Shown piece after piece: positions 344 to 32,785 of a stretch of DNA of 33,409 nucleotides. Below the pieces are notes generated by a model. It saw nothing but the letters and a program-made list of their open reading frames with translations. It was not told where the DNA came from and did no database searches. A program made the position numbers and the translations under genes. The DNA lies in contig CAXNAA020000033.1 in NCBI GenBank assembly GCA_964200075.2, positions 1 through 33,409 of the forward strand. The letters are read 5' to 3'. Within the stretch, counting starts at the first letter, position 1; every line of letters begins with the position of its first letter. Source of the DNA: Sphacelaria rigidula (taxonomy: Eukaryota).

Positions 344-559
344 GTTCTTCTCTACTTGCTTCGACTTGCCCCTACAGTACCACCTACCGTTTCGGTACAC
401 CCGGCGCAGGCCGACGTTACCAGCAAACACGTGCGGTGCAGTACAGCAACTACTATCGCCATCATCCAGCGATCAGGGGGTACCCCCCCTCAAAAAATCG
501 GATACCCCCCCCCCCTCCTCCAACCCCAGAATGAGGTTTGTGCGGCGAAAGAGGGGGTG

Positions 560-9699: not shown

Positions 9700-9780
9700 T
9701 CTTGTACAGCCGAAGCACTTGGTGGCGTACTACCCTTTCGACGGCCACTCTGGGAACATAGCTCCATCATCCTCCGGCAG
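9700..9780 (+). CDS. Exon A: start of LamG-like domain 1 (LVQPKHLVAYYPFDGHSGNIAPSSSG)
   Basis: Acceptor cccctccgacag, donor CAG|GTGAGG. LVAYYPFDG is the typical LamG-like N-terminal motif. Phase 2 end fits exon B. Alternative acceptor at 9710. Not in the ORF track. Confidence 0.8.
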
Positions 9781-12334
9781 GTGAGGTTCAACGTTGGTAT
9801 CGTAGATAATCTCCACACGGCAACAAGGTGGCGACTGCGAGCGGTAACGTAAACAAATGTTTGTGACCATTCCCCAGCCATATGGTGAGGTCGTGTGTGT
9901 TGCGCCAGACAAAGTGCAATATACTGACCGAGTACTTTCTGTAGGAACGCTTTCTGTAGCAGCACGATCCGTACCCGCTGTGTGTTTCGCTCCGAGGTTT
10001 TGGGAAAACAGCAGAGGTGTTGGCGGGACGTCCAGAGTATAATCACACACCTAGAATGACCGACTGGGACATCGAGTAATGCTACGGGAGGTGTGAGACA
10101 GAGACTTGCACGTAACGGGGATTGTATATATATCAGACAACCACACACCACTTTTACGGGCGAAAGTGGTTTCAAACCGTGCTTTAGTCTTCTTTTTTTC
10201 TTCTTGCTTTCAACACCCCCGCTTCTTCGGGACGAGTCCGAAGTCTCAAGGAGTCAACCCACCTCTCTCTCGGCACCTGCCTCGCAATTTATGATCAAGC
10301 ATTGGATCAGCATACCTGCACCACGTTGACACTCTTCAAAATTTCTTTGCTTCTCACCTCCTCACGTTTTTACCGTGTGTATACGTGGGTTATGTGGATA
10401 GTAGATAGCAACTGAGACATGATACCTACAGCATTGACCCTAAAGTGGCTGTTTCATACAAGCAATGGTTTAACCTCTCCGAACCCCCCCTCTCCGTAGG
10501 TTCATTTTCAGCAACCCCTTTGCCCTGTAGCCCTCCTGCATACGAACTGTTGCTCCCACCCGGAAGTTGACCGTAAACGCAACTCTAGAGCTAACCCTGA
10601 CCGCACTTATTCAATCCGAGTCATTTTCATGAACCTAATCCTCAATATTCATCCACTTTGCTGCATTTGCGTTTTCCACCCTTGGGCACCATCCACTTGC
10701 TCGCCAGCAACTCATTGGATGCACAAAACAGCGGCGGAGTTTCCACGAGCGAAGCGGTTTCAGGGTTGTCTTATTACCTCAGCGGACACGACTTTCTCGA
10801 CGTACCGAAGCTGGACATCAGTCCACAAGCTTTCCCCCTACTGACCATCGGCGCATGGGTGAAGGTGGGAACAGAAAGTCAGCGAATTATAATTCGAAAG
10901 AGTAGACATTATCGCACAGTTTAACAAAATCCCCTTTTTTACAGATCACGAGGTGTTTGCGTGTGATTTGAAAATAACAGATGAGGCGACTTGTGGCACA
11001 CTAAACGGTGAAGGTGCTTACATTTGAATACAGCGAGCTTTACCTGGACTTGTACGATAACATGTCAACAATACATGCATACAACAGAAAAATATTACTT
11101 TGCATCATGTCCACCGCTGTATAACTCATGCGACACGGCTCAAAGACGTCGAGCGGCTAGATCAAGTTCAGACAGGCCCCTAGACAAGAAAAAAACACTC
11201 ATGTACCAATAACGAAAACCCTGTTTTGCCCCGACGTACAGCTCTCGTGAGACGGCTCCCGAGACAGTAAACGGCCATATTAGTTTCAGGCCAAGTACTA
11301 GACATGGAAATGAGATTCCACGTACGAATGGTAGGGCCCTGTTTCGCCCCGATTCTGAGAGATTCTCGCTCAACGTTTCATGTTAGTGCCTCATCATTCA
11401 CTCGTTCCGCTCGTGCTCCAACTTTGTCCCCGCGCTGTCCTTGTCCCCGCACACGTTGCTGCACGCAAACTCAGATCCTAGGCTACGCTAAGCAGGGTTC
11501 GCGTAATGGGTTTGGCTCTTCCCGATATCTCTTTGCTGATACTAGCAGCGACCAATACAACAATACCGGTCGTTTCGTCGCCCTTGACTACCGGGGGGGG
11601 ATTGGAGGGGGGAAGGGGGCAGACGAAGATTTACCGAGCCAGGGACCAGGGTGGGCTCTCGGTACGGGGTCGGATGGAAACGGTGTGCTAGGGTTGGGTC
11701 AGGTTGCAGAGTTGTCAAGGTAAGCTCGAACATCGCCACGTATCCTCATGATATATCTTCTCTTGATCGCCGTGATGTTGGAACGCTTCTAGTGCGGGAT
11801 GAGCGACGCGCGCTCGCGCAGACGTTATTACCTTCCGGGATAGTGCCCTGGGGCGGCTGCGTGGGTGCCGTCGGTGCGAGTGAAGCGTAACAGGCGGGGG
11901 AGAAAGATCACTGGCTAATAGGTGGCAATTGATTTATCTTACTAGGCCATCGGTCGAACAAAGCCTCTTTCGGAGGAGGTGCAATATGGGTTGAAATGAA
12001 ATTTTAAAGGGTCTCGTCGGTACGGCGAACAGATGCTATCAGCGACGTTACACACAGACCAATAAATCAAACGGATAGTCCTCCGTTGGGTTGTCCTCGT
12101 GTACCGGACACAGCGTTCCATGCGTTTCGGAGCAAAATACCAAAAAACCAATAATAGTGTGTAGGGATATACGCGCAAGCGTTGGTAATCGAATGATGGT
12201 ATGAGCGGTGCTGCAAAGAGCACATCATTATTCTCTTGAAGATAATGTATCGGGATAATTACAATGCCGGACATACTGTATGCCAGGACGTGGCTTCTTC
12301 TCCGGCATCTTCCCCTGCATTTCGTTCAAGGTAG

Positions 12335-12370
<36 letters not shown>

Positions 12371-13865
12371 ACCCCGGAATGATCAACCGGTGCTGTTGGC
12401 CGTTGGTCCGCTGCGCGGGGCTTCGTAGACGAAAAATAGCAGGTGGTTCTACAAAAGCACTGCAACAGAGCGATGTTCTCTTTCGAGTGCATCCTTGGTT
12501 AGGGGGAACGTAACGTAAGCTACTACCCAGTGATCTTTACGTCTGCTGCTCATGTGTAGGTTTCTCGTGTCCGTGTCGGTGCTTGTTTGTCTCGACATTC
12601 TTTGGATGAGAATCGTATCTTTGTTCAGCCAATCAGGAAACTGCGTGCCACTTCGCCCTTCTGTCAGTGTCGCTCAGCATCGCTCTTTTATGGTTGTTTT
12701 CCAACTGTTACTAAAATGCGACAGTTGCTCCCGGCGCACGATCCTTCTTCCAAACCAACAGATGGACGTTCGTTGCAGCGGTATACAGTCAAGAAGCTGG
12801 AAATGCCACTCTGTTCGTCAACGGACAAACTGTTACATCACAGACTTCAATTCCCAAGGCAACCGGTACATGGGGTGAGATGTCTGAATCAAAGGGAAGA
12901 TTCATCGAGAGTGTGTTAATCGTCGTACATGACCTGATCGCCTACGAGTCATGATCCAGCAGTCGTTACACAATGGCTGTACCCAAGGTGAACAAACATT
13001 TGTAACCGTCGATCGGCATACAGCGCCGGAAGCCGCACGCTATGACGGGAATGTGTCCCGCCCTATGCGATGATATTGGGTATATCCAACACGTTTGCCT
13101 CTCTGAGACTCTTGGTTAAAACATGGCGGAAGTGGCAGAAACACCCACCGTCCCCCTCATGTCTTTCTTTTTCTTGCCAATGCCTTCCTTCCATGGTACC
13201 TTCCCCCAATGTGGTGTGTTACTATGTGGTGTTTTTTTCTCATGTCTAGTATATTCTGTGAACGTACCTACGGCTGTCCCTCATTTGTCTGCGTTCAGCG
13301 GGGTGTACCTGGCCGGTGCAAACCCGACATGGTATATTCCAGCATGATCAGAATGTGGGGTACCGCGCCTTTGTTCTCGGAATTGACGTTATAAGTAACA
13401 TATGTACCTTGATTTGCTTTTAGACCCCCTAACCAATGTAGGTATGGGTGTGTAAAGGGCACAGACGAAGTGACCCCGGCGGTTACAGTCCGACTCAGGC
13501 GTAGTAGAGGTACAAGGATAAACCTATGTGAATATTGTTGCTATGGTTGGTGATCTTTGGTACCCCGAGTTTGGCCCCTATTTTCTGTTTGGCTTTCGCG
13601 TGTCGAGTGGGAACATCGGGCTTTCCCCCCAGCAGTCCGAACGGTCGCCAGCGACACCAGGTTTGATGGGATTAACAATAGTTCCTTTTTATGTTTCTCG
13701 CGCCTGCGTTCATTATTCTGGGTCCTATCTCATGTTTTTGGTTTTGACGTCATTACACCTTGTTTTGGGTAGTGAGCCGGTGACCACGGAAGGTGTCCGC
13801 ATCGGATGCCGGGTTTGAAAATAGTAGTTCTGTGCAGATATCGGAACGGTTTTGAATGTGAAGAC

Positions 13866-13937
<72 letters not shown>

Positions 13938-16900
13938 CTTCGTGTGCGCAATGTATGTATACGCTACTATGGACAGCTAGAAAGTAGATATATCACATCG
14001 ACACCATCAAAATGTCACACTTTTGCACTTGCACCATGCGTCGTGTCGAATGCACCGCTTGTATTTTCTCCCCAATGCTATCGGCATAGAACATGGAAAC
14101 GGTGAGAGCTTTGGCGCGCTTCGTGTAGGGGCGGGCCCGGGTGAAGACGGAGCGGCCGATGGGGGCTCCGGTCTAGTAGCGTACGTGGACGAGGCATTTG
14201 TGTACGGGACGGCACTGACGGTGGACGAACTGAACTATCTATTCCAGGCAGCCCAGGTATGATCGGGGAATCATCCTCTCAGTACAATTCCACTTGTAGA
14301 ACATCGATTTCCCCTCCATCGTGTATCGCCCGATAATGTATTCCTGGGAACTTGAGGATCGACGTGGTTACTTAAGACGTTGCTCGTATCACTGGTGCTC
14401 ATGAGACCACTCGTATACCTCCTGCACTGAAGGGAAAATGATATCGTTGAAGGATTTCGAGAAAACATGGCTTTGTCAAGTCTGCAAATGGAATTGTGCT
14501 CCATTCAGCTCTTTGTATATTTCCGCATCTAATGATGAAACGCCCTACCTCTACTTCATATTTGAGAGTAAATATTGGGCAGTTGAACGACGGTTCGTGT
14601 TCCCAGCGCATTCGAACGGTCGTGATATACGACACGGCCGAGGGTTTTGTGGATGGTGGAGGAAGGGCATCACAAAGTTCTATTTTTTCGTTCCCTGCTA
14701 CCCCACCGTTGAAGCGGTGTTGAAGATGTTGATTCCACTGAGAAACGTCTCTCACGGCCACGATTTCATGCACCGTGACCCTGTCGTCCTACCTGTGGAC
14801 CTCGACAAAGACTATGTACAAACACTCCAGGAGTATTTCTGAACTCACTGCCATTGATGTATATACCCTTTGGCACCTTACAAAACGCCTGGCAAAATAT
14901 ACGTATCACGTGATCCGTGCTTCACACACGGTACCTGTTGTTGGTGCTGCCTTTTGTTAAGCTCAAGTAGTCAAGAGAATTTCGGCAGTGCATCCACAAT
15001 GTATGAAGACAATATCAAGAGCTCTCCCACACGCTTTCGCCTTCCGCGCACAGTAAGACCTTCTGTGTGTTATCACTCTCCAGGTCCCGCTTCCTCCATC
15101 GGCCGGCTCGGCAGGGTACGCCTTGAGACTGCAGGGGTCCCGGTGCATAGAAGCGACTTCCCCCCTTGGGTCTGAGGCAGCGCGAGAGCTTGTCGTGGGC
15201 GCGTGGCTGCACCCGTCGCAAGTGCGTGTGTGGCCGCTGCTATCATCTGGGTTTTGCTCAACTCGAGATATCTTTCATTGTTGAGGATACTGTTTTGCCA
15301 TGATGTGGGATGTGGACATGCTCCATTGACTGGGATGTTTGCGGCTGGCTGAACCGTCTTCCAATTGCGGAGACGTTTGCTATCGTTGTGTTGTTTGCCC
15401 TACCGGCATGTTGTACAGTTTTTTCTGCTTGCGCCGGCGGGATATTTTTTGTTTACTGGAGTGTTGCCTAATGCTTGTACATCGTGAAGATACACATACA
15501 GAAGTGTCCCCCACCTTGAGCGGGTATTTTGAAGGTGGTTCCTCACTATATATGTACATACATACATTGAAATATTCCCATAGGCTGAGGTAGGTACGTA
15601 TTGAAACATGCAAGAAGACTGAATGATGCCGATACGATGCGCAGTTGAAAATAACAGGAATAAAAACTGGCTCCTGATAAACATTGAGACAGCATGAATC
15701 CTCTTCGATCAGCACGTGCTTTTTTCTGGTATTGCGTGGCTCAAGCGGCAACCATCCCCTTCCGGCGCGATGTACTCCAATTCGAGGGCAGGTACTTCAG
15801 CGCGAAGTGGGACTGATAGATTGGAAAGGGGTGGATGGAGACACTGTCCGAGTCACCATGTGGCACGACACGTCCGCAAATCTCACTAGAGTTCGGCTGC
15901 GGCTCAGCAGTACTCTGGACTGGTCGGCGCCCTGTCCATACCTGGAGGTGATGGTGCATACACATCGTGGTATTTCGGCGGAAGCGATAACGTGTTTTTG
16001 AAGCACAGACACGCACCCGCGCTTGTTTGGCGCGTTGTGTACTTCTTTTCGAACGTACCTCCACGCCATCAGGGCAGTCACAGACTGAAGTTCCACTTGG
16101 TACACTCAGCCCAAGATTTCGTGCCCGTGCTATTCCTGGTGAAACCTCGGCGTGGGGTTGATAATGAGAAGCGCAGCACTTCAGAAAATCGGCAGGCAGA
16201 GAGTGTAGTTCCATATGCTGTTGCTCCCAACCCATACAGAGAGTAAATACATGCGCGTACACCGGTGTCGCCATCGCTACATCTCGTGCCATTGCTACCT
16301 CTCGCGTACCCCTGCGGTGAGGTTATGGAACACAGTGGTTCAAGGGTTCGTGCTCATATTTTGCCGTAGAAACAAGAACGTTGTGCACCATTTCCGTCTC
16401 TTTGCCGGAATGAGAAGAAGAAAAGATCATTTGCACACTTCTCTCGCACGAGGCAGCACTGCAGAAGTGATCAACTATCGATTTTTCTCATCTTCCGTTG
16501 CCACACCCTTTGCCCCATTGCCGCGCGGAAGCCGGATACATGGAGCCATGTTAGGGTAGGCTGGAATACATCGTACGCTCAGGCGTACATCAACGGATCT
16601 TTGTGCGAAAGTGCCGCAATGTTGGATTATCCGAGTAATGACATGGATATCGGAGGTAAGGGACAGGATGTACGAGATTCCTTACTGATTGGCGCGTGGC
16701 GGGGAGCACCTGACGGTACCGGCACGGACCAGAGAGGCGGATACTACAACGGTGTTGTTGACAATATCGAGGTTAGTTCCAACGCCTTCTGATCCATTGA
16801 ATCCCAATGCCATACCGTACCGCTTCCCTGCACACCCTCTCTAGCTCGAACGTTTAGCACCGTGACTCTCCCATGTTTGAGGAAATACAAAACTAGCACC

Positions 16901-19900
16901 ATTCGGCTACCGTTGACACTACCGTTCCTGAGCTGGGTATGTAACATGCAAGTAGTGAGTGTCTGACCCGTTTCACATCGGTTTTCACTCGCCGTTTCCT
17001 CGGGTCATATGTTCTTTATCCTACGTACATACAAAGTACCATGTGTTGCCGATTGCCAATTAGCTGCTCCTGGCATCCTGATATGGTACCGGCTCGGTGG
17101 TTGCAGCCCCATTAGTAACCCAGCCTCCCAACGGATGTACGCAAGATCGACACGTACTGTACCGTTCAAACATGTCGTAGAAATTGGAAATGCATACAAT
17201 CACCCCGTACACATTCTTCGATATCGCCCCCCCCCCCCCCCCCCCCCCCCCCCAACCCACACCCCAACCTCCACCTCTCTCCGGCCGTGCCATCCTATCC
17301 ACCNNNNNNNNNNCATCGTTTCATTATGAGAAAATCCCCAAACCCCCCCCCCCACCTTTTTCTTTCTCCCCCCCCCCCCCCCCCCCCCGTGCTCCTGTAA
17401 TCGACATTCCCCGTGGTATCGTGTAACCAGGTCTGGTCCTCACCAGTCATGTACGGATCACGAGATCCCCGTGTCCCTCTCACAGGCTTCGAGCCGGGTC
17501 TAGTAAGCCTTTGGACATTCACCGAAGGTCGAGGAACTGTGACGGTCGACTCTGCGTCATGGAGAAAACCCGCAGACGGTACCGGTGCCCCCGGCATCGC
17601 ACGATTTGGGGTCCTTACCCCTGCAGTGGCTGTCGCATCGCCTAGCGCTGCGCTGTCAACATCTGACAGCTCTAATGGTGTGTCCCAAGTAATCAAAACC
17701 TCAGGAATCCTTCGTAGCTATGTAGGGGAGGGGGGGGCTTATTGGTTGCTTGCCTTGGTCGTTTGACCGTTGACCATGCACCCCTTTGGAGACGGAGCAC
17801 CGTTCCTACTCCTATTAAAGACGCGTCCAACATTTGGGCGCTCATGTACTTTTTTCGATACGAATCGTCGTACTTGTCTTATCCTCTTCCTGTTTTGCCG
17901 TCTGTGGTCACCAGCTATCTCGTAGTATAGCGATCGTTTTGTCGCTACTATCTGGTGCTCCAAACGATTTCATGCCACATTCGTTTAGTTCCCACATTTC
18001 CCCTCGAGCACTTGACTACGCTAGCCCACCTTATTCCAGCCTGCCCTTTCGGGCGGGGGGAAAAGGAGGAATCATTTAAAAGCTCGAATGTGGAGAGCAA
18101 AACGGCCTTTCCTAGCAGGTGTCCTGTCGGGTTTCGCCCATCCATTCCTTTGCCGTGTCTCTTGCAGCGCACAATACTACCAGAAAGGTTGGGTTCTTCA
18201 AGTAATGGCGGCGATGCTGGAGCTTGAACCACAGATTGCGATTTTGTTTCCGGCTATCGCGACTAGTGAATGCAACCACAATGGTGCTTACTTCGAACAA
18301 ATTGCCATATGTTCCCGCACGTTTCCCAAGTAAAACGTTACCATAACATCGTTACAAAACATGACACGCACTGCGTACAATGACACAACAGCAGACTTGC
18401 GTAGAGTGGATACCTACTTCTACCAATAATATTCCTTCTCATGCCGTGAATCGAACTCCCAGGGGGGGCCCAACGTCCAAGCGCACCGCTTCTTGCTTGG
18501 ACAGTCTCCACTGCTCCGGAGGGCGGCCTCGCACGGTCGTTCGATACACGCCCGTTTGTTTTCCGGATAAACGGAACAGACGCGCATCTACGCTCGCTAT
18601 TCGCTGTATTCACTACAGCGCCCGAAGGAGGGGTGCTTGAGGTTGCTGCACCGGTTGGGGGTGACGGCGGTGGAGTGCGTCCATCGCGCGCAGATATGCT
18701 AGATACTCCTGGGCGGATATTACGGGTGGGTGATGCTGTGCCATTGGGTACAAGGTTAATGTATACACCGAATTCGGGAGCGCATGACCCATGGCCCTAC
18801 GAGAATGGTGTTTCTTGGGATGCTGATGAAGATTGGACCACGGAAGCCACGCCGTATGATTGGTTGGCGTATCGAGTGGAGACTACGGACGGTGCCGAGA
18901 TTTCTATAAATGAGGCGGTGGTGGCGTTGAGCGTTCGTCCGGACGAAACTCGCTCACGGTTGAGCTGGCCGTCCAAGGTGTGGATCTTATGAATTTGGGG
19001 AACGATTCAGGGTCGTTTTTATTTGCTACTTTCGACCTGAAATAGTGGAACACGAAATATCTGATTTTTTCTTCTTTTGCAACGTACGCATTGGAAGTCA
19101 TCATTTACTACCAGCGATAGCTTCGTAAATCGCCGGAACGGAGTATGGCAACCTCTTAATACCCCCTCCTTGATGAAGTTCCGGCATTTTATATTATGGG
19201 ACTGGTTATTTCCGGGGAAAGGATGTATCGTTCTCCGTCGGGACTTAGAGTGTTACCTTTTTCTGTGGCCGTAGGAGGGCTACTACTGCCCTTTTTGTTT
19301 TTGTGCGATTAGGTCCCATGGACGAGACAGGCGTCATTTTTTGAAAATAGTATTATCTCCTTTCGGTACCACCTGATGCCACAGATATAGAATCGCGCAG
19401 CAACTTGCATGTGTTGTTTCTCCGGCATTGAAGATAGTATCGCTTGCCTGTATGTTTTCTACTGATGACATACATCCAAGCAACAACCTTTGGTGAAAAA
19501 CATGGGCTGGAAATGCACAACACCCATATGCAATATTCTGTCGCGGAAACTTCAGAACCATTGGTTCAGTGCAGCTGGTAGTGCGTGTCAAATGTGGTGT
19601 CAGTGGGTTCCGAACAACTATGTTGGCTACGACTATGTAGCGTATAATATAGAGTGCTACGCAGTACAGGGCGTAAGGGCCATTCCGTCCCTCGACACAA
19701 CAGTGCATGATGTCGATGCATTGTACCAACAGGCAGCACCGTACACGATTGTGATAACCCTGCAAGTTCGGTCGGAGCTATGCCGTACAGTACATGCAGT
19801 ATAGTAAAGTGTTGCATGACTCGTGCTTTGGTATCAGCATATCAAATGCGTGAAAATGACTGTCCTGCGTCTACTCCACGTCCTTCGGTCTGCAGTCCGT

Positions 19901-22900
19901 CGACCGTCACATCCCCAAGTGTTTCATTCGATAGCCACCCGTTATCACGGTGTAGCGCACAGCCGTTGGTTCAAACTAACCGAGGCCCCCCAAAAAATTC
20001 GATTTGGTTCGAGCAGCGTGTTTCTGTCACTTGTAACAACTCGGATGAATAGCTTCGTCAGCGATGCGATTTGATCAGCCATCACTTTCTTCTCCCCCTG
20101 GCTACCGTGCGGCATCGTGCGCCCCACGTGCGACATGACCGTGTGAAACACGCATGTAATTTCGCGCCTGCTGCGCGCTTTTGTGATATCGGAAAAATCC
20201 TTCCCCACACTGAAAAATCAAGGACATTACTCTCTACGACTACGAGATCCAAGACGTGGACGCTTGGGAGGGGCGAGGCACCCCGCTGCAGGTGTCTCTA
20301 GCGGTTACCGAAACCCTGGGAACAGGTGCGCACGGGCCAACCGTGTCCCTTTCAACCAACGATGGACTAAGTTTTGCCGCACAGAGATCGGGGGACGGCT
20401 TGAAAGATCGATCAACGGTATTTGTCGCAGATTTGGCGGATGCAAATACCGCTATTTCCGCAATAACTCTGCACACAACAGCCGACGACGGGGCTGTAGC
20501 CGCATCGGGCATTATTTCCTTAGGCGCTTGTGATTCCGGGGCGTGTGGGATGGCAACTTCCGAGGGAATAAACGTGACCGCTGCTAATGGGAGCAGGGCG
20601 GGCTGGTGGGATCGGGGGGACGAGTCTAGTGAGGACGAACGGGTGGAGCAGAACATCTCGTTCGGTTATCGGATGGGGACGCTTCCAGTGCTCAAGGATG
20701 TTTGGCCGATTGCTGCTCCCGTCGGGGGGGGGCTCATTGTAGAGGTGAGGTTCCAGGGAGCAGCGGCGGGGGAGGACGTTGAGGGTGTCCTTTAGTGAAG
20801 CATACCCTTCCGATTGTAGGTACTACTACGGCGGTATGTGGAATGATATGTTAGAACGCGTGCAGTTATGCACAAAGATCCTCGCTCGATGTGTGACTTA
20901 GCCAGAGACATACGATGGAGGTACTTTGGGACTCTGAATACTTCAATCGGGGTTCTAGCACCCGAAGTACCAGTCGACATTCGTAGCCACTACGACCTGT
21001 CCGAAACGTTCCTTCGACACCCTCCCACACAATATATAACCCGTGTGGGTGTATTCTCGAGTACACAGCGTTGTAATAACCCAAAACACAACTGGCTTAT
21101 TCTTTTGCCCCAGGACGAGTCTGGTCTGGCAAAAACCCGGCGTGCTCCGTCCCGGGTTTGTAGAGGTGCGACGCCAATGGTCTAATGACTATGACATGCA
21201 TGATCATGAGTACACCCCCCCAGGACTTCGTCCTCTGTCGCTTCAAATGACATGCATTCTGGTAATGATCACGCAGTACGTCCATCGTACGAATCATAAC
21301 TCGAAAAATGTATGCTTTCCCATTTTTTTGTGTAACCAGATCCGGGGGACGAATTTTGGAGTCTCCGACTACGTATGCGTATTCGGCGATTACAGCGACG
21401 GGCAAACGACAGTGGCAACCCACGTGGCACCCGGCCTTATTGAGTGTCCAATAGCCGCTGCTCCCACGGATATTGACGGAAATAGCATTCCTGGCTCATC
21501 CTCAATTCATCTCTTGAGCGCCGTTGGGTTTCATAGCAACCGCCTCGCATTTTCATACTACACACCGCCAACCCTATTGGGCGTGGCTCCAAATTTCGGG
21601 CCTGTCGATGGGGGTACCAGCGTTATCATCACAGGCCTAGGGTTTTCCAATCGCGGCAGAATTGAATGTTCGTTTGGAGGGGTGAAAGTTCAAGGCCATA
21701 TGTTGTCAGAGACTGAGGTGGCTTGCACATCGCCTGCTATGGTTGCCCCCAGTGCGATACCGGATTCATCTGACGGATTCGTTTCGATTCTGATAACCGT
21801 AAACGGATTGCACTACGGCTATGACGCTGGCGGGTGGTCGGAACAGGTTATGTACGAGTATGTAGAAGTTCCTGTGGTGTCGTTCTTTCGACCGACAACC
21901 GGCCCGCCGAACTATTACGCAGCATCACAAAGCGGCGGCGGGAAGTTGGAGGCGACCATCACCGATTCGGAGATGACGAACAGCCGATATATGACCGTTT
22001 ATGGAGCACATTTCGCGAATACGGTTTACCTCTCTTGTCGCTTCGGTGCCTTGCTGACCACCGCAACGTATATTTCTTCGTCGGAGGTGCGATGCCGCAT
22101 CCCACCGTATTCCGCGACAACAGGCGATGCACCCGTTGTTTCTGTGACTACGAACGGGGTAGACTTTAGCCGAGAGGGGGCACCATCCGCGACGTTCACG
22201 TACGTCTCCTCGCCGGAAATGTCGGTACTCTCTCCCAGGCTCGGACCGGCAATCGGAGGAACGCGGGTGACAGTTCTCGGGAGGAATTTTGTCGGCGGCG
22301 GGACTGCAGTGGACGAGGCCTCATTGCTCTGTCGGTTTGAGGTGGAGGATCAAGCTTCGATTAGCACTGAGAGCAGTAATGCCGCAGTTTCGTGGGATGT
22401 CCAAGCGGTCGTCGAATCCGACAGTGTCGCTACATGTTTGTCTCCTAAGGTTGCTTCGGTCATGTCAGGGGGCATGATTCACGCTGGGGTGCGAGTATCT
22501 TCAGACGGGGGCTGGAGCTATTCAGCTTCGTCCATGCGCTTTCTTTTTTATGTGCAGGCAACTGTCACATCCGTCACGCCGGCCACCGCGCCGGCTTCCG
22601 GTGGAAGTGATATAATGATTTCCGGGAGCGGGTTTTTACCTGGGAATGGACTCCCGCTCTGCTTGTTCACACCGACGAAGGTGTATGTTCATGGTGCGCG
22701 TAGCGGGGAGGAACAGAGAGCCGGAAACGTCGTTGTTACTAATGACTACCCTCTTGACACCTTCACAGGCGCAGCGACGTGGCTATCGAATGAACTAATC
22801 GAATGCAAGGCGCCGATCATGGAACTGGACAGTGGCACCGCCGTGACATTTAAGGTACGCGTTTCTAACAATGGCCTGGATGAGTCTTCAAGCGCCGGCG

Positions 22901-25900
22901 AGCTCATTGTCTACCCGTCGCCACAACTATCCAGCTTGTCGCCGGCAGCTGGACCCCGCACAGGCGGGACAATGGTCAACGTTACCGTGGAACGTTGGTC
23001 CTTGCCCTTTGGAATTGCCAGCGTTGGCTTAACACGTTGCCAGTGGGGGGGAACTATACCCGTTCCCGCGGAGATAGCGATGCGTCAGGAAGACGAAGGC
23101 GGTGGCCGCATAGTAGTCACTTGCTTCTCCCCCGGAGTCGACACCGTCGTAGAAACAGGACCTCCGGAATATGAAGCAACAACAAGCCAAGATGATTCCG
23201 AGCTCCATCTCGCTTCAATTTCAGATTTCATTTCTGAAGTGTCGGTGAATCTACTAATTGACGGTCGGAACGTGAGCTCCGTCGGGCTGCCCTACCATTA
23301 CTACGGTAGTCCTATGCTACAAACCGCGTCACCCACTGCAGGAGTTACAACCGGAGGTACAGAGATCGTCATCAAGGGATCTGGTTTCATGCTTTCGGCC
23401 CCGCGAGAGCGGAGTTCGGGGCAGGCAATATGCGCATTCGGGAACACCACAACCTCTGCTGTTTTGGTGTCTGATGCTGAGTTACGGTGCCGCTCTCCGC
23501 AATGGACTGGCTCGGTGGTACCAATTACGGGGACGTCCGTAGCCGTGACGGTGTCCCTCAACGACGGAATTAACTTCGGTACTTCTTCGGTACGATTTGA
23601 CTACTTACCGATCGCGAATGCAGCAGGTGAGAGACATTTATCTAATTGTGAAAGGATGTTTTACTATAGAAACACAAATACGACCTAAAGTAGGGTGGAA
23701 GACCCCTGCATGTTATCTGGAACTTCAGAATTCTGTGGACGGAGCTAATGATTTTGCCGTGGTGCTCAGCACGGTAATTGCCGTGGAAAGAAGTGTACGT
23801 CAAGTAAACGACGAAATGGTCCTGATTTTGTTGATATGAGTAGGTTCTTCGCCTAGCAAATATTACTCTCTTTCACGTGAATATTGTCCCCAGGAGTTTT
23901 TCCCAGCACCGTTCCACCCGCCGGAGGGTCCGAAATATTCGTCAGCGGCAGTGGCTTCTCGCCATCAGACTATCTGTCTTGTTCCTTTCAACCACAACAA
24001 GGAGCCTCGCCAGGATCCAGCGAGTGGTTCAATACCATGACCATCGTCACCGCAAAGTGGATATCGCCCGAGGAAGTGGTTTGCATAACTCCTACCCTGA
24101 TAATGCCAGTGAAATCACCACTGAACGCGACGATGCCGTTCATTGTCGCACGAGTTGCAGTGTTAAACGACGGTGTAACGATGGAGGGCGCCCCGTGGGT
24201 GGAGCTGATTATCTCGAACATTCCTATTATCACAGCGATAGCTCCTACAGCCGGGTATGTAACTGGCAATACGACTGTGGCTGTTCTCGGCGAGGGATTC
24301 CTGGACACCGACGGGTTATCATGCGTTTTCGGGGACACAGGCGCTGTGTCTGTCGAGTACGTCAGCCCGACTCAGATCACATGTGTATCACCACCACTGC
24401 TTTTTCGCGCGAACTTGACCGTCGAAGAGCCAGCGCATGAGACAGTGGAGCTGACGGTTAGCAACAATGGAGTACACTATACTGCCTTGTCAGCGATTCC
24501 CTTTCGCTACGTTACCCCCGTGAGAATATCGACGATTCATCCAAGCTTGGTCAATCTCGAGGACTTGGCGCAAGGTGGGGTGGCGGTCAGCGCATCCGCC
24601 AAGAGCTTTTCTCACTATTTCGGTGATCAGCGTACCCCAGACGACGGCAACGTCACGTGCAGATTCGATGGACTTGGAGACTCTATCGCTGGTTTTGTAA
24701 GACCGACAATGATCATGTGTCCACTGCCAGCGGTTGAAGCCTTGGCCGGTCAGGTTCTCGTGTCTGTCAGCGTCAATGGCTACGACTTCCCTTCGGCAGA
24801 ATATGGCAAGACAATTACCTTAGCACCCGCTCCTCAGGTAACGTCAATTTTCCCACAAATGGGGCCGGCCTCAGGGGGAACTGTCATCGAGGTGCACGGT
24901 GAAAACTTTGGAGCACTAGATCCCCTTGTGTGTACATTCACCTTGGTCGGAAACGACGCAATCACAGTGCATGTCCCTGCGGAGTATGACGGCACAAACG
25001 CTGTTTTGTGCATCACCCCGCCACTGCCACCAACAAGCTGGACACACTCAACAGAACAACGAACTGTATTGACTGCCCTTAGCGTCATCCTCGCCGATCG
25101 ACTGGTGGAAGAAAGGATGGGGCAGGATCCCCACGTGCTCGCTACCGCGGAGTTCATGTACTACCTTACCCCCGTGGTCAAAGAAGTGCAGCCGAGGGTT
25201 GGAGCTGCGGGCACACTGGTCACGATCCTCGGCAAGGGTTTCTTGGACTCCCCGGGGCTCATGTGTCGGTTTGGAGAGTTGTCCCAAACGCCGATTGTTG
25301 TCGACGCCGCGAAAACGGGGATCACGTGTAAGGCGCCTCGCCAAGAGACTGGTCATGGAATTGTTGCGGTCGAGATATCGAACAACTTGGTCGATTGGAC
25401 AAGCAGCGGCGTGACGTTCCGTTATCGACCGCGCACAGTAGTCAACAGTATTACGCCGAAGATAGGTCCCGTAAGTGGAAACACTATTGTGCGCGTGGCA
25501 GTCGCTGGTCTTGCAGCCATCATTAAGCCCGTCGGCGACGACGACGATGATAGCACGCTTTCGTGCCGTTTCGGTTCCAGACAGGTGAAAGCCGCACGTG
25601 CATCTGACGACGAGATATCGTGCGCTTCCCCAGCCGTGACTGAACCCGGAGCAGTTACTGTTGAGATTTTCGAAAGTGGAGTCGCCTTAAGCGATAGCAG
25701 GTGGCGCTTCGACTACGTTCCAGATGTGCAAGTGAGCGGGGGTGATCCCTCAGCTGGACCAGAGGCGGGCGGTACCAATGTGATCATCACAGGCAATGCG
25801 TTTCTCGGAGTAGAGCCAGTTGTGTGTGAGTTCGGGGCTCCGGCTTTCCGCGTGGCTGGACGATGGCAAAGTCGCATCGCCTTCATGTGCGAGGCCCCAC

Positions 25901-28900
25901 CTCACCAACCCGGCGTTGTGCCGTTAAGGGTGAGCACGAACGGCCAGCAGTACGTTGATACCGGGCTTGTTTACACTTATCAACCGCAGGCGACGGTTAC
26001 AGCCGTTTCGCCTACCAGTGGGTCGGTATACGGCGGAACGAGCATCGTTGTCAGCGGTACTGGCTTCGTCTCCAGCACAAAAGTAGCATGTCTGCTCGGA
26101 GAACAGCTGGGTGAGGCAGCGTACGTGGACTCCACTCATATACTCTGCCGGGTGCCGAGGGCGGATATACAAGATCGAGCATCATCCGTTGCTGTGAGGA
26201 TAGCCAACAATGGTGTGGATTTCACTGATACCTCCGAAATTGCTTTCGAATATGTGCTGCCGATCGAGTTAGTACATATTGCGCCCACTTTAGGTCCCAC
26301 CACTGGCGGAACAATAATTAATGTTCATGGAATGGGGTTCTCGGCTTCCCTAAATGTTCAGTGCGTGATAGATAGCGTTGCCGTGGTGACTACGGTGATA
26401 TCCTCAACGCTGTTAACATGTGCTACCCCTAACAAAGCGATCCCTGGCGTGGTTGAGGTGGAGCTAACACAAAACGGGCTGGATAGGAGCTCAACGTCTG
26501 TGACGTTCCTATACCACACGCCTGTCGATGTAGTTTCGGTGTATCCTTCATCGGCACCAGAAAGTGGGGAATCAGCGCTGCTGGTTTCTGGATCAGGATT
26601 CGTAGAGACTGCCGAGCTGGCGTGCGCCTTCACGCTGTCTACCGGTGGGGTTATCTCTTCAATTTATCGGAAAGCCACGTTCTATTCGGGCAGCCTCATT
26701 TCCTGTCAAAGCCCGGCGGGAAGTGTGGGCACAGCCTATCTTCAGGTGACCAATAACGGTGCGGATTTATCGAATTCATCGACGTCGCTCACAGTCACCA
26801 GCAAGTCGACGATCACAAGCCTATGGCCATCTTCAGGCTCCACTTATGGGGGAACCAGAATCCGGGTGCGGGGAACAGGTTTTCTCAGCTCGTCTACCGT
26901 TTTCTGTAAATTTGGAAACGATGTGGTTAGTGCCGAAGTTGTGGTTGATTACACAACCGTCATATGCATGACACCCCCCAGCGAAAGCGAGGGATCAGTG
27001 CTTGTCCAGGTCACCAACAATAATGTGGACTGGACTTCCAGCGGCGTGGAGTTTACGTTCAGGCCTCCCATCTCGATTTCGAGCGTGTCGCCCAAGAGTG
27101 GTCCTATAGGCGGGGGTACGCTGGTTCGTGTTGTGGTGATGGGGATTCATGCCGATATTGACCGAGGAACCATTTCCTGCCGATTTGGACAAAGCTTTGT
27201 ATCCGCCGCGTTTATAGACGCTGATGGGACCGTCCTTTGCGTATCCCCTTCCGCATCATCCTCGGGCGCTTCGTCATTAGAGCTCAGCCGAAATGGTGTA
27301 GAGTTCACATCGGATGGATGGACATTCTATTATGTACCCGACATGATGGTAGAAAGCGCGTGGCCGCTAATGGGCCCGGAATCTGGCGGGACAATGATCA
27401 CCCTTGACGGGCATGGGTTTTCCGACATTGGGGACGTTGTCTGCGAATTTGGTTCGCCTGGTAGTCGAGTACCAGCAATCGGGATCAGCGTGACCGTGAT
27501 TCACTGCCGTTCTCCCGCTCACATGCCCGGAACAATATCGTTAAGAGTTGGCGTGAACGGACAGCAGTTTGTGGAGACGGGAGTAATTTTCGATTATCTC
27601 ATGGAATCCACAGTGAGACGCCTTCAGCCTTCCTTAGGTCCAGTGCACGGCGGGACAGAAGTCGAGGTGGTGGGCGCAGCTTTCGTGAACTCTACCACGC
27701 TGTCTTGCCGCCTAGCCGATCGAGTTGTACCTGCGACGTTTGTAAACAAAGAGCTCGTGCTTTGCGTCACACCTCCATCGCCATCTATTTTACGCCTGTC
27801 GCTGGAAGTATCGAACAACGGTATCGACTTTACCACCAGCGGAATATTGTTTTCATTTGTGGCCGCTTTCGACATCATACAAGTTTGGCCGACGAGCGGC
27901 CCCACAACCGGGGGTACCTTAGTCACTGTTCAAGGATCCGGCTTTTCGGGGGGAGACAAGGTTGTCTGTATTTTCGGCGGCAGTCAGGCGGCGGCAACTG
28001 TGCACAGTGATGATGAGCTGTCCTGCCTTGCTCCACGCGCTATGTTGGAAGGCTCAACCTATCTACGGCTTACAAACAACGGAGTTGATATGGTATCAGC
28101 GCCCACACATTTTACATACGTGACGCCCATCCGACTGACGAATATCAACCCGACCACCGTGGGAGAGGAGGGTGGGGAAACAGTGGTTATCACCGGGGAG
28201 CACTTTATCGCTTCGCCTTCGTTAGCTTGTAGATTCGGCTCGCAGGACACCGTACCAGCATTTTGGCTGTCACTCACTGAAGTGTCCTGCTCGGTACCGC
28301 CCTCGCGAGCGGGTCCACACGAGGCGACACTAGCGGTCACCAACAACGGACAGGACTTTGCTAGTACAGCTCTTACGTACACGTACCTACCGACGATCAC
28401 AGTGCTCAAGATTGATCCTGTCGAGGGTCCCATGGATGGAGGCACCGAAATATCGATAGTAGGAAGTGGTCTAGGTCAGACCGGGCTATGGGCGTGCATA
28501 TTTGGCGAAAGTGTCGCTGTACCAGCGGTACAGCTTCCGAACGATGCTCTGCGATGCCAATCACCTGCGCATGAACCTGGTGAAGTATCTGTGCGTGTGT
28601 TTAGATCTTCGTCTGCACTGGCATCTGTGACAAGCGACGCAATTGCTGCCGCCACTGCCAACACGCTCAAGGACTTCGGAATGAGATTTCTGTATCAAGC
28701 AACCGTGTACATATCGACGGTGGAGCCACGCAGCGGGTCCAACCTGGGAGGAACGCCGGTTACCCTTCGTGGGTTTGGTTTCAACAACGCTAGCGCGTTG
28801 ACTTGCGGGTTTGAAGAGCGGAACGGAAAGATCGTTAAGACGCCAGCATTGCGGGCATCTGTAGGGATGGTTGTTTGCTCATCTCCGCCTCGTCGCTCGG

Positions 28901-31900
28901 ACAAGGATACCGCCTCTGTGTTGGCGGGAGGGTTAGTTCATAACCCTTCGATAGTTTCTGTCTTGGTAAGTTTGAATGGCCTGGATTTTACTAGACGTGG
29001 TCCACAATATGTTTACTACGAGCCGGTCGAAGTGGTGACGGTTTTCCCTTCGCTGGGATCCATCAACGGAGGCACGTTTGTCACCATTACGGGCCGAAAC
29101 TTCCTACCATCTGAGGGCCTCAGCTGTCGCTTCGGGATGTCCGCGCCCTCGCCAGCGGATTTCATTGCCTCGAATGCACTCCGCTGTGTAACTCCGCCAG
29201 CTCCCGCTGGCCCTGCCACAGTCGAGGTGAGTTGTTAAACGATGGGGCGGTGGTTTGTCCACATTTCGGGGCCGAGTCGTTCAGCGCGAGGGACAGTATT
29301 TGCTCTACAGTCTGGAGTTCAGAGCTCCGTTGTATTGTTCAGTCACGGAAACACGACCATTTTTACTCTCTTTCCACGTTGTTATCACCCCTCATCAGCA
29401 AGTTTCTGCTGACAAAGATGGGTGCTTCCAGCTTATCGTTTGGGGGCGTGGGTACCAAACCCGGCGAAAGATCCATTATGGACCCCAGCGGACACATGTC
29501 GATCCTACAACGAAGATGGGCGAGCCTAACTGGGTGAATTGAAGGGTGTTACAGAGGGGGTTGAGTTGCTAGGCTGCTAAACGAAAGTGGGAGACCACCA
29601 GGCTATATCAAACTGCCTGAAAAGGACATGGTTTCCTCCAGATATGACATAAGCCTGTTTTGAGCTACCTTTGGAAATATGGAAGGACAGTTTGACCTTG
29701 GGTGATCACGCTATGGAACAAATTGGCCTGTTCACTTGAAAGCGGGCAGTAGCTCGCCTGGCAGCTCAGCAATTTAGCTCATGACTACGCCCTTGGCCCC
29801 TGTACTCCATCAACCTAGGTGACGGTCTCCAACAATTTAATGGAGTTTTCTGCCTCATCGGCAAAGTTTGTGTATCATCCTGCATTACGTGCGGAACGAT
29901 TCAGCCCCGCTGCGGGCCCTCTCTCCGGTGGAACACCCGTTGTCATCGATGGCAGTGGTTTTCCTGCGACCTCACGGCTTGCGTGTCGCTTCGGCAGGGT
30001 CGAGGTCAAGGCAACCTTGGGGTCTCCTCCGACGAGAATGATTTGTGTTGCTCCAAAGTTGGCCTGGGAAAGGCGAGTACCGGTGCAGGTAACGGCCAAT
30101 GGTATAGACTGGGAGAACGTGGGAGTGAAAGGAACTGCGGAAGTGGACACATCATTCTTTACATACTACAAACCGCCCAAACTGAGGCAATTACACCCCA
30201 GCATCGGCTCTCTCTTCGGCGGTACGCGTGTTTCGATCTTCATCGATGCGCATCCGGCGATACTAGGGGGAGACGGTCTACTACTTTGCCGTTTCGGGAA
30301 CGTGTCAGTGCCGTCAATACAGACGTCGGAAACGATTATGGCGGCGCACCCGAAAGAAAAATCCGACAAGGAGGAAGATGCGATTGTGCTGTGCGATGCT
30401 CCTGACTTGGGTGCGGGAAATCTTACCGGAGTTGAGGTATCTGTGAGCGTCGATGGAGGACTTCACTTTTCGTCGCCAGCCCTCGTGTATACGTACCTGC
30501 AGGTGAGCGCAACCCCATGACTTCGCGTAGCGTTTTCTTGCACCAATATTCCAGTTGTGTCGAAACCTATCGTCGTCATCGTTTTTATTCGGAACACGTA
30601 ATGAGAATCAATTTCGAGGGAGTCTGTCTATTTTCTCAAGTCTTGCACTCATTTGCGGGTTTTCTTCCTGAACGTGGAGGCAAAATCCATCCTTTATCAC
30701 AAATACTTTTGTTTTTACCTTGTTTTCGACTGCACCAAGTGTTGCCGTGTTATCTCAGCTCACGAAGGCCTGACAAGATTAGGAATAGATGACATGGAGA
30801 AGCGACGTTACCGTGTTGCACGGACCTAGGAGAAGCGAGAGTAGAAGAAGTAAGATCCGCACATTTTGCGGTGCAGGGTACGGACCGACTATCGCGCATG
30901 CACGACGCTTGTTCCCGTCTTCCGGCACTTATTATCATTGACCATCGCTGATACTTTTGCCGCGTTTTTTTCCGGCTCGGTGTGGCGTCGTCCAGAACAA
31001 TCGAATGTCGTGCAATTTCCGTGAAAATCGAGCGATCGAAATACTATCGAATGCCTTTTACTTTGAACCACAACAGGTGCCAACAGTCTACTCCACAGCT
31101 CCTTCGGCCTCTATGGAGAAGGGAGAGACTACAGTCGCCGTCACGGGACAAGGTTTCGTCAACCTTCCGACACTGGCGTGCCGATTCGGAATGGTCACTA
31201 GACCCGTGCAGTTTGTCTCTAGTGAGTTGATTCTCTGTCCGACCCCATCGACATCGGAACCAGGCACGGTGCATCTAGAAGTTACCGTCAATGGTGTCGA
31301 CTATTCTGCGCAAGAAATTCCCCACGCCTTTTTGTCCATGGTAACCCTAAGGCGCTTGACGCCTCACACGGGCCTTGTGGGAGGTGGATCTACCGTGCAA
31401 GTGGAGGGTTCGGGATTCGCTCAGTTTTTGCAGAAAGGGTTGCGAATTCACTGTCGATGGGAAATGCCCGGACCCGCCCCGCACGACATACTCGAAACAC
31501 GAGCAGCGATCAGCGCCGATTGGAGGGTGACGTGTGTTTCTCCGGCGGCCGGGGAGGCTGGGAGGTGAGTCATATACCATGAGTTACCGGCCAGCCAGGT
31601 TAACTGGCAATCCTGATCTTAGTGGACCTTAACATAGGACGACAATTAGTTGTCGCCGGGGCCGAGTCGGCCGGTCATGGTTGGTCATCCAATGAAATCA
31701 CGCCTACCATGAAGGCTTATGGCGAACTATGCATCACCAATGGCCTACCCCGGTCGAAGATAGAGGTGGAAGTCATGTCCCTGGAGTACTACCGAACGGC
31801 TTTTTTCTCTCCTAAATTGGCACCACCGGTCCTGGACTTTTGTCATGCTGCTGTGCTACGTTTTAGCACCGTGCTGCCGGAAGGGCTGGGTATTCCAAGA

Positions 31901-32785
31901 GTAATAGTAACGCCTGGGACAACGGAATGTTCTCTCCGGCTGGGTAGTTTTATTCATGTTTGTCACACATCTGCTCACTTTATTTCCTCGGGACGAATCG
32001 GTAGTTAAGGGATCAACATACTCTTCCCCCGATATCGTTTTTTATCTTGGTGTCAAGGATGAGATCAGCACTCTGCAGCGTGGCAACTCTCGTCAAATTT
32101 CCTCTGCTATCAACGTCCTGACGTATTCAATGACGGAAACCAGATTCTCATCATATATCGTATCTCTTGAGGTTCCAACCCGCAATGTTTCCCCCTAGCT
32201 GGTCTTGGTGTACCACGACCGAGGCGCGGTAATGTCCGGAAAAATAGGGCAAGCGTCTGCGTACGTTGGTTACAGGGCATCATCGTGACATGCCCGTGTT
32301 CCGCTCGCCGCTCCATTGTTAAACGATTCAGGTCACGCGTGTCCCTCGTCGCCGGAGACGTGAACGTAGCCGACGTTGGGATGGAACTGTTCTATGAATA
32401 CGAGCCGCCTGCAATGCCTGTCGTTCTTGTTCCCGCTCACGGCTCACCCGCGGGCGGCACGAGGATTGCAGTCTTCGGCGAGGGCTTCCTCGATAGACGG
32501 GAGCTAGGATGCCGATTCAGTTCTGTGTCTGGCGGTGGTATTAAACACGTTGGGCACGAGGTCGGAACGGGCAGTGGGGTGGTGACGGTGGATATCCCGG
32601 CCGTGTTCGTGACGACCGAGGAGGTGCACTGCTTGTCACCGGCATTTGACGCGTTGTACACCGACGAGGATGAGAAATTGGAAACACACCATGCGCTGGT
32701 GGACGTGTTCAACCACGGTTGGACTCACGACAATCACGGCGGCAACCGCCGTGGGCTCACCTTTTGGTACCGTGTGCAACTTAAG
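9700..32785 (+). CDS. Giant multi-exon gene, partial at both ends: 2x LamG/ConA-like + ~2 cadherin/Ig-like + >=31 IPT/TIG repeats; putative cell-surface/extracellular protein
   Basis: join(9700-9780,10708-10864,11475-11719,12762-12874,14090-14256,15084-15221,15792-15947,16532-16771,17431-17677,18619-18977,20223-20744,21340-23626,23894-29226,29819-30502,31077-31564,32332-32785). All introns are GT-AG with matching phases; 1 nt + 3,890 codons with no stop; domain motifs run across junctions. No start, signal peptide or stop identified. Confidence 0.88.
10708..10864 (+). CDS. Exon B: LamG-like 1 (NSLDAQNSGG...YYLSGHDFLDVPKLDISPQAFPLLTIGAWVK)
   Basis: Acceptor ttgctcgccag, donor AAG|GTGGGA; TIGAWVK motif; phase 2 to 0. 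Confidence 0.85.
11475..11719 (+). CDS. Exon C: LamG-like 1 (ILGYAKQG...LGQVAELS)
   Basis: Acceptor caaactcag, donor AAG|GTAAGC; phase 0 to 2. Confidence 0.82.
12337..12368. repeat. (AT)16 microsatellite, intronic
   Basis: Directly visible. Confidence 0.97.
12762..12874 (+). CDS. Exon D: LamG-like 1 core (R-WTFVAAVYSQEAGNATLFVNGQTVTSQ...)
   Basis: Acceptor ccttcttccaaaccaacag, donor G|GTGAGA (same-phase alternative after 12865). W-x-x-V-A-x-V-Y...L-F-V-N-G motif; phase 2 to 1 bridges its neighbours. Not in the ORF track. Confidence 0.85.
13869..13937 (+). repeat. (CAA)23 microsatellite, intronic; possible retroposon tail
   Basis: Perfect repeat between exons D and E. Confidence 0.97.
14090..14256 (+). 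CDS. Exon E: end of LamG-like 1 (ALRVGAG...GLVAYVDEAFVYGTALTVDELNYLFQ)
   Basis: Acceptor ggcatag, donor CAG|GTATGA; resembles the LamG C-terminal G-x-IDE-x-x-VY-x-x-AL-x-x-x-E motif; phase 1 to 0. Confidence 0.87.
14270..14842 (+). pseudogene. Possible decayed ORF of unknown origin inside intron E-F
   Basis: One frame runs ~190 codons with two internal stops (134 aa uninterrupted). The in-register antisense frame is also mostly open. No recognised domain. Confidence 0.3.
15084..15221 (+). CDS. Exon F: start of LamG-like 2 (VPLPPSAGSAGYALRLQG...ELVVGAWLHPSQ)
   Basis: Acceptor cactctccag, donor CAA|GTGCGT; 138 nt, phase 0-0; AL-x-L-x-G and VGAWLHP motifs. Not in the ORF track. Confidence 0.82.
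15792..15947 (+). CDS. Exon G: LamG-like 2 (VLQREVGLIDWKG...WSAPCPYLE)
   Basis: Acceptor gggcag (in-frame alternative ttcag, start 15801), donor GAG|GTGATG; phase 0-0. Confidence 0.72.
16532..16771 (+). CDS. Exon H: LamG-like 2 (PDTWSHVRVGWNTSYAQAYING...LLIGAW...YYNGVVDNIE)
   Basis: AAG acceptor, donor GAG|GTTAGT; W-x-H-V, YING, LLIG and YNGVVDNI motifs; phase 0-0. Confidence 0.85.
17226..17388. other. Poly-C tracts flanking a 10-N assembly gap (17304-17313), intronic
   Basis: Directly visible. Confidence 0.95.
17431..17677 (+). CDS. Exon I: end of LamG-like 2 (VWSS...EPGLVSLWTFTEGRGTVTVDSAS...)
   Basis: Acceptor gtaaccag; GLV-x-x-W-x-F-x-EG-x-G-x-x-x-x-DS motif. Donor ATG|GTGTGT (phase 1) fits exon J. 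The alternative donor after 17688 would need an extra micro-exon. Confidence 0.8.
18619..18977 (+). CDS. Exon J: cadherin/Ig-like domain (PEGGVLEV...LMYTPN...YDWLAYRV...EAVVALSVRP)
   Basis: Acceptor ttcactacag, donor AAG|GTGTGG; YTP...D-x-x-x-Y-x-V pattern of bacterial Ig/cadherin-like repeats; phase 1 to 0. Confidence 0.82.
20223..20744 (+). CDS. Exon K: second cadherin/Ig-like domain (IQDVDA) and start of IPT/TIG 1
   Basis: Acceptor aatcaag, donor GAG|GTGAGG; ends PVLKDVWPIAAPVGGGLIVE, which joins IRGTNFG in exon L; phase 0-0. Confidence 0.87.
21340..23626 (+). CDS. Exon L (2,287 nt): IPT/TIG repeats 1-7
   Basis: Acceptor tttttgtgtaaccag, donor CAG|GTGAGA; repeated P-x-x-G-x-x-x-GGT-x-V-x-I-x-G-x-x-F...C-x-FG...C-x-x-P...V-x-x-NG; phase 0 to 1. 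Confidence 0.95.
23894..29226 (+). CDS. Exon M (5,333 nt): IPT/TIG repeats 8-26
   Basis: Acceptor ttgtccccag, donor GAG|GTGAGT; 1784-aa open frame of tandem ~85-110 aa IPT/TIG units; phase 1 to 0. Confidence 0.96.
29819..30502 (+). CDS. Exon N: end of IPT/TIG 26, repeats 27-28
   Basis: Acceptor caacctag, donor CAG|GTGAGC; ATVE|VTVSNN junction completes a domain; phase 0-0. Confidence 0.93.
31077..31564 (+). CDS. Exon O: IPT/TIG 29-30
   Basis: Acceptor accacaacag, donor GAG|GTGAGT; phase 0 to 2. Confidence 0.92.
32332..32785 (+). CDS. Exon P: end of IPT/TIG 30, repeat 31; gene continues past the window
   Basis: Acceptor cgattcag, donor AAG|GTGAGA; PAHGSPAGGTRIAVFGEGF...CRF...VHCLSP; phase 2 to 0. 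Confidence 0.9.

Follow-up and report, generated by a model that had tools for sequence, protein, structure and literature searches.

The window analysed here is a stretch of 33,409 nucleotides (nt) from the brown alga Sphacelaria rigidula (contig CAXNAA020000033.1, positions 1 to 33,409, forward strand) with a G+C content of about 50%. Between 9710 and 32785 it carries, on the + strand, a gene whose predicted product would begin with two LamG/ConA-like modules, continue with two beta-rich modules and then run into an unbroken chain of immunoglobulin-like IPT/TIG units. We consider it probable that this is one very large nuclear gene for a modular, probably extracellular protein, in which a lectin-like LamG head is carried on a long TIG rod and serves adhesion, organisation of the wall or matrix, or recognition.

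Gene model

The core of the gene is formed by two very long stop-free stretches on the + strand, 21040-23688 (882 amino acids, aa) and 23881-29238 (1,785 aa), which lie in the same frame and are joined via a clear intron (CAG/GTGAGA ... CCCCAG/G, the slash marking the exon border). A GTGAG-type donor occurs again after the second of them. Both were used to train a codon log-odds scan and a small Viterbi exon chainer, and the resulting exon chain was then corrected by eye, by alignment to orthologues and by one spliced contig. The final model, 9710-32785, comprises 16 phase-matched exons with 11,742 nt, encoding 3,914 aa with 0 stops, and all 15 introns in its splice table are of the GT..AG type. 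The coordinates, the 16 phase-matched exons and the length of more than 3,890 aa given in an initial annotation of this DNA are thereby borne out. Alternative borders for exons 7 and 8, which encode the N-terminal half of LamG2, yield 3,937 or 3,952 aa and are likewise open. The exons are:

Exon 1, 9710-9780, + strand: start of LamG1 (PKHLVAYYPFDG...), from the Viterbi model and splice table; no Pfam match alone
Exon 2, 10708-10864, + strand: LamG1 (...TIGAWVK); positive codon log-odds, no Pfam match alone
Exon 3, 11496-11719, + strand: LamG1 core, from codon log-odds, Viterbi model and splice table
Exon 4, 12762-12874, + strand: LamG1 (W-x-FVAAVY...LFVNG); Laminin_G_3 at 28.3 bits and cover by the spliced contig
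Exon 5, 14090-14256, + strand: end of LamG1; acceptor from the spliced contig, donor at 14257 predicted
Exon 6, 15084-15221, + strand: start of LamG2 (GYALRLQG...VVGAWLHPSQ); inferred from sequence, phase 0 on both sides, open, without RNA or homologue support
Exon 7, 15890-15991, + strand: LamG2; 3' border at 15991, 15993 or 16038, all open
Exon 8, 16532-16771, + strand: core and end of LamG2; 5' border at 16465 or 16532
Exon 9, 17431-17677, + strand: last LamG2 strand, then linker; continuous with exon 10 in relatives
Exon 10, 18463-18977, + strand: all-beta module without family; 7 homologues at 46-63% identity
Exon 11, 20223-20744, + strand: second beta module (weak PKD-like likeness) and first half of TIG unit 1
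Exon 12, 21340-23626, + strand: second half of TIG unit 1 to start of unit 8; Pfam TIG E 1.4e-46
Exon 13, 23894-29226, + strand: 5,333 nt, TIG units 8-26; Pfam TIG E 2.3e-189
Exon 14, 29819-30502, + strand: TIG units 26-28, from Pfam, orthologue alignment and the gene's own profile
Exon 15, 31077-31564, + strand: TIG units 29-30, from Pfam, orthologue alignment and the gene's own profile
Exon 16, 32332-32785, + strand: TIG units 30-31, ending at the donor AAG/GTGAGA

That the exon 1 motif resembles the beginning of the LamG profile was judged by eye, and the gene's true 5' end was not found. Part of LamG1 is transcribed and spliced. A 261-nt contig (record 23) from run X5, which is labelled 'RNA?' and whose RNA nature is a guess, matches 12760-12873 and 14089-14193 at a contig depth of 2.1, so that the intron 12875-14089 (GT..AG) has been removed. 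Because of this contig the start of exon 5 was set to 14090 instead of 14129. The contig's match begins 2 nt ahead of exon 4, and another 42 letters of it are unplaced; this fits a junction of 11719 to 12762 without demonstrating it. It is the only spliced contig among four sequencing runs, and most of the gene is without cover in runs X5 and X6.

Modules of the predicted protein

Pfam profiles were run on the separate open reading frames (ORFs). With the TIG family (PF01833, cutoff 20.9 bits) the 1,785-aa frame matched in 18 stretches (614.4 bits, E 2.3e-189) and the 882-aa frame in 5 (156.8 bits, E 1.4e-46). Outside these two frames, one set of ORFs contained one TIG stretch and another contained two stretches plus one weak match of 15.8 bits that lies below 20.9, with scores of 53.7 and 52.7 bits on exons 14 and 15. 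Counted by separate ORF, Pfam arrives at 26-27 TIG units, whereas a profile built from the gene's own units, which includes the units split by introns, finds 31, as initially counted. A Cys pair (C-x-FG...C-x-x-P) had been described for most units, and we can confirm this: exactly two Cys are present in 31/31 units, accounting for 62 of the protein's 66 Cys, and the pattern C-x-[FWLIV]-x ... C-x-x-P occurs in 28/31. The TIG_plexin profile also matches the array. Pairwise identity between units has a mean of 28.5% and a maximum of 45%. Neither a clear super-repeat nor a recent duplication was found within the array: means by lag lie at 27-31%, and no pair exceeds 45%. The units are thus old and diverged yet all open, which argues that the array has been kept by selection. 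N-x-S/T sequons, which had been called frequent, are not enriched: 20 were counted in 3,914 aa, compared with 21.5 +/- 4.1 in 1,000 shuffles, 674 of which equalled or exceeded the observed number.

Two LamG/ConA-like domains had been proposed for the N-terminal part. For LamG1 this agrees with a Laminin_G_3 match (PF13385, gathering cutoff 27.6 bits) of 28.3 bits on 12715-12951, above the cutoff and covering only positions 76-112 of the 151 in the profile; the remaining LamG1 exons, short and scored singly, gave no match to this family. LamG2, in contrast, stays under the cutoff with 19.7 bits on 16370-16789. Its region aligns to a part of the EukProt protein g4869.t1 (P0061) that scores 51.7 bits for Laminin_G_3, and exon 8 is homologous to this LamG_3 region of P0061 and to the start of P0003, an ORF of a relative. 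Pairwise comparison of the joined LamG parts with P0061 and with P0058, a bacterial repeat adhesin, gave weak matches (E 0.12 to 1e-4), of which LamG2 against P0061 was the best.

The two modules between LamG2 and the array, encoded by exons 10 and 11, matched no Pfam family, either in the window or in 16 homologues. Their AlphaFold2 models are all-beta and of low confidence, with predicted local distance difference test (pLDDT) values of 62.5 and 65.1. For neither model did Foldseek against pdb return anything at E <= 1e-3, and VIA-align (wide) returned generic beta-sandwich rows only, with best Z values of 5.7 and 8.1. Residues 37-96 of exon 11 match near-identical PKD-like repeats of P0058 about 20 times; as each match reaches at most 13.3 bits, the summed E-value overstates this link. 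At this level of similarity a kinship of the exon 11 module with the PKD-like units of P0058 is suggested. The ESM Atlas gave phage clusters labelled 'hypothetical' (0.90, low recognition) that could not be used, and a metagenome single-protein scan for middle-module loci found none. The earlier description as two Ig/cadherin-like domains therefore holds in so far as there are two beta-rich modules, for which an Ig-like nature is plausible. A cadherin-like nature is unproven, as the modules match neither a Pfam family nor a clear fold. Relatives share the conserved motif PVL..VWP..AP..GGL.VE with which exon 11 ends.

Continuation of the array in relatives

Proteins from Hapterophycus canaliculatus (P0013), Scytosiphon promiscuus (P0015) and Ectocarpus fasciculatus (P0011) are 55%, 55% and 42% identical to the window gene, respectively, and colinear with 24853-32788, including exon 13. 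They are orthologues or close paralogues, deposited as 'unnamed protein product, partial', and consist of TIG arrays only, with two Cys per unit like the array in the window. All three partial models begin inside the TIG array and are without the LamG head and the middle modules. The first 1,483 residues of P0013 (3,288 aa) are colinear with 26488-32788 and the first 1,189 residues of P0015 (3,815 aa) with 27361-32788, both at 55% identity. Alignment with the orthologues reaches 32788, from where these extend (...QLK/ISKVTPSTG...) for 1,800-2,600 aa past the window's last exon without reaching an end; the next exon (...ISKVTPSTG...) is not in 32786-33409. Past the window end, P0015 contains 24 more TIG units and nothing else. 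In about 20 ORFs from relatives an exon ends where P0015 stops (...GGGTE/VS...), so that the P0015 model is itself cut short. Judged from these alignments, the full protein is predicted to exceed about 6,500 aa and to contain at least 55 TIG units. Matches to the downstream exon include entries from Sphacelaria and Choristocarpus, both early brown algal branches, and the family seems to be old within brown algae. The comparisons show conservation of the family across brown algae at the level of sequence.

An extracellular location is suggested by the LamG modules, by the presence of one Cys pair in each TIG unit and by the kinds of protein to which the family is related. Several of 41 giant TIG homologues begin with signal-like segments. 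Upstream of the gene (1-9710) and inside it, scans for a signal-peptide exon (ATG, hydrophobic segment, phase-0 donor) found none that was convincing; weak candidates at 4429, 5183 and 8794 were rejected as unsupported.

Some of the giant TIG homologues differ at the C-terminus. In 11/41 of them a C-terminal cluster of 3-9 hydrophobic 19-mers is present, and a conserved multi-pass module of about 500-900 aa follows the TIG arrays of P0020, P0022, P0026, P0029, P0032, P0033, P0040 and P0048, which come from several protists. When nine membrane modules were compared, eight proved homologous to one another (21-48% identity, E 1e-12 to 0). The module of P0029 has no Pfam family, no PDB sequence match and no Atlas cluster, and the multi-pass module appears to be an undescribed receptor-like family. 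The window gene could encode the extracellular arm of a giant multi-pass receptor whose TIG chain ends in a conserved membrane module of about 500-850 aa and which would sense or signal wall strain, contact or mate recognition instead of serving adhesion alone. Besides the mutual homology of the modules, this idea draws on the fact that the proteins with C-terminal hydrophobic clusters include the ochrophyte Triparma protein P0029 and the 'complete' transcript ORF P0020. However, no membrane cluster is seen in P0011, P0013, P0015, P0016 or the downstream-exon ORFs, all of them partial. In addition, the likeness to the membrane-module proteins amounts to 25-29% and concerns TIG repeats only, a level at which orthology is not demonstrated, and LamG occurs in none of them according to precomputed Pfam lists. 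We regard such a receptor as unlikely. Quite unlikely, too, is the more specific proposal of a protein of more than 6,500 residues with a LamG tip, a TIG rod of more than 200 nm and a multi-pass membrane module at its end that would act as a giant sensor of contact or wall strain or as a receptor in mating or self-recognition. If true, it would represent a sensor or receptor of a lineage with independently evolved complex multicellularity.

A probable single gene and its possible role

The reading that we favour, a LamG head and a TIG rod in a single gene, depends on the linkage between the two parts. TIG unit 1 (45 bits with the gene's own profile) connects head and rod, since intron 11 divides it into a first half encoded by exon 11 (...LPVLKDVWPIAAPVGGGLIVE) and a second half encoded by exon 12 (IRGTNFGVSDYVCVFGD...); the half-domain with which exon 11 ends has been conserved in relatives. 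In 7/7 relatives' ORFs (P0003-P0009), exons 9 and 10 form one continuous frame, and in the closest of these, P0003 (63% identity), the end of LamG2 lies in the same ORF as exons 9-10. P0061 (527 aa) contains Laminin_G_3 (E 1.3e-13), the middle part with its PKD-like region and the first TIG start in the same order as the window gene and aligns colinearly to model residues 315-857 (E 2e-20), although it is only 25% identical, a short partial model, and its one TIG match of 17.3 bits is below the cutoff. In four relatives a head ORF and a far-downstream TIG ORF (P0006/P0078, P0003/P0096, P0007/P0099 and P0008/P0085) have longest contigs of equal size, which hints at one locus. The weakest link is that of exon 5 to exon 6, for which we relied on phase and motifs. 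The earlier proposal of two LamG domains, two beta modules and a TIG array in one gene is thus supported by the open, phase-matched exons, the split TIG unit 1 and the order in P0061.

Alternatively, the exons could represent two or more genes, namely a small LamG protein that ends just past 14256 and/or a TIG protein that starts at the ATG at 21247. Indeed, a stop follows two codons past exon 5 when the donor at 14257 is unused, the in-frame ATG at 21247 has a hydrophobic start (MTCILVMITQYV), and head and TIG array stand together in no annotated brown algal protein among the matches listed. With a start at 21247, however, TIG unit 1 would lack its first half, encoded by the conserved end of exon 11. 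Moreover, every junction is phase-compatible, P0061 and P0003 link LamG2, the middle part and TIG, and the equal-sized contigs of the four relatives hint at one locus. Separate genes appear very unlikely to us. The ATG at 21247 itself sits in intron 11, in a frame that reads on into exon 12, and might serve as an internal start for an isoform that has no head. That the locus is a decaying or silenced relic, for example one broken by repeat insertions and making no protein, appears highly improbable. High-copy repeats do occur in three introns (8, 9 and 11) and close to the gene on its upstream side, intron 9 is missing from 7/7 relatives and RNA cover is almost nil; yet 11.7 kb of exons are without a stop, both Cys are retained in 31/31 TIG units and one spliced contig was found.

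For the single-gene protein with its LamG head, the following mode of action can be proposed. The Cys pair of each TIG unit would form a disulfide, and the chain of 31 units in the window plus at least 24 more expected from the orthologues would constitute a semi-rigid rod of about 4 nm per unit, so that the part in the window would measure about 125 nm and the whole rod more than 200 nm. At its far end the LamG head could bind a glycan or protein ligand, and the protein may act in adhesion, wall or matrix organisation or cell-cell recognition. A binding head on a stalk of about 100 nm, as initially suggested, is a fair inference; the length was underestimated and, with at least 24 further TIG units in the orthologues, would be well over 200 nm.

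Several points weigh against this interpretation. The link between exons 5 and 6 relies on phase and motifs only, with the stop two codons past exon 5 if the donor is unused, and the RNA support amounts to one contig, with a depth of 2.1, whose source run is only guessed to be RNA. The LamG assignment comprises one exon barely above the cutoff and one below it, and the pairwise tests were weak. There is no enrichment of N-glycosylation sequons. The search upstream revealed no signal-peptide exon, and 10 ORFs there are without a Pfam family; nor is an anchor present within the window, beyond which the C-terminus lies.

By analogy, the protein could work like other giant ectodomains with TIG repeats, such as those of fibrocystin-L, plexin/MET stalks, Tgr proteins and bacterial adhesins. 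Fibrocystin and fibrocystin-L (PKHD1, PKHD1L1) are, like the product predicted for the window gene, very large surface proteins with many IPT/TIG units and an extended ectodomain, and fibrocystins are among the homologue matches (P0044-P0047; 24-30% identity over 9-36% of the query). They differ in having G8, PbH1/beta-helix and PA14-type parts (Pfam lists) and no LamG head; fibrocystins have a single membrane span. None of these parts is seen in the window, where G8 and PbH1 matched no exon, and the additional 2,600 aa known from the orthologues contain only TIG units. Plexin and MET also have extracellular IPT/TIG units, but few rather than dozens, and these serve as stalk or recognition modules. 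Neither Sema nor PSI was matched by Pfam on the window exons, where LamG and family-less modules precede the TIG array, and kinase or GTPase-activating protein (GAP) parts had no Pfam match in the window. In Dictyostelium, extracellular IPT/TIG units of TgrB1/TgrC1 are reported to take part in recognition (10.1101/2025.08.01.668227); again there are few TIG units, in contrast to the dozens in the window gene. Giant repeat adhesins of bacteria (P0058, 3,669 aa, from the planctomycete Engelhardtia mirabilis, and the Rhodoferax TIG protein P0014) draw on the same beta-sandwich kit of LamG (including Laminin_G_3), PKD/Big_9/cadherin-like and TIG modules, whereas the window gene is interrupted by 15 spliceosomal introns and its orthologues are spread across brown algae.

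Complex multicellularity and thick polysaccharide walls arose in brown algae independently of those in animals and plants, and only a few brown algal proteins of adhesion or the matrix are known. The gene described here is a concrete candidate for adhesion and recognition at the cell wall, between cells or in spores and gametes. Present brown algal annotations split it into partial models without the head, and a LamG-LamG-beta-beta head on an array of more than 55 TIG units is found in no annotated brown algal model among the matches listed. As far as searched, the architecture is uncharacterised, as had been supposed, although parts of the family are already deposited as unnamed partial proteins. 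Our literature search found no paper linking TIG/IPT arrays to brown algae; the Phaeoexplorer supplementary tables may list the family. In the Phaeoexplorer preprint, IPT is named only in a figure legend on FG-GAP proteins, and 'TIG' in PMC5559719 is a journal abbreviation and not the domain.

Upstream of the gene, contig depth in the DNA run rises from about 28 to 1,500-33,000 within 5168-8800, and many contigs connect 5641 to about 8781 with different letters between. The block 5641-8781 looks like a high-copy repeat of about 3.1 kb or a transposon-like element, and its ORFs matched no Pfam family. The actual first exon of the gene could be concealed or lie at a considerable distance. Further upstream, a 3,472-nt contig of the probable RNA run X5 with a depth of 75.5 ends exactly at 4601 (covering the window from 4501 or earlier) and represents an abundant neighbouring transcript; ORFs near 4501-4601 matched no Pfam family.

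Repeats are also present in several introns. Intron 9 (17678-18462) is absent in 7/7 relatives' ORFs, all of which read straight through the site, and it contains a high-copy element at about 17745-17960. It may be a recent intron gain via repeat insertion; terminal repeats were not found in it. In intron 11, a short element at 21116-21219 reaches a depth of 61,000-81,000 and has loose ends at 21116 and 21219. A simple repeat resembling proline codons (17217-17313, intron 8) adjoins a 10-N assembly gap at 17304-17313. In intron 4, reads are cut at about 13858-13948, where a long trinucleotide microsatellite reads as poly-N or poly-Q in two frames.

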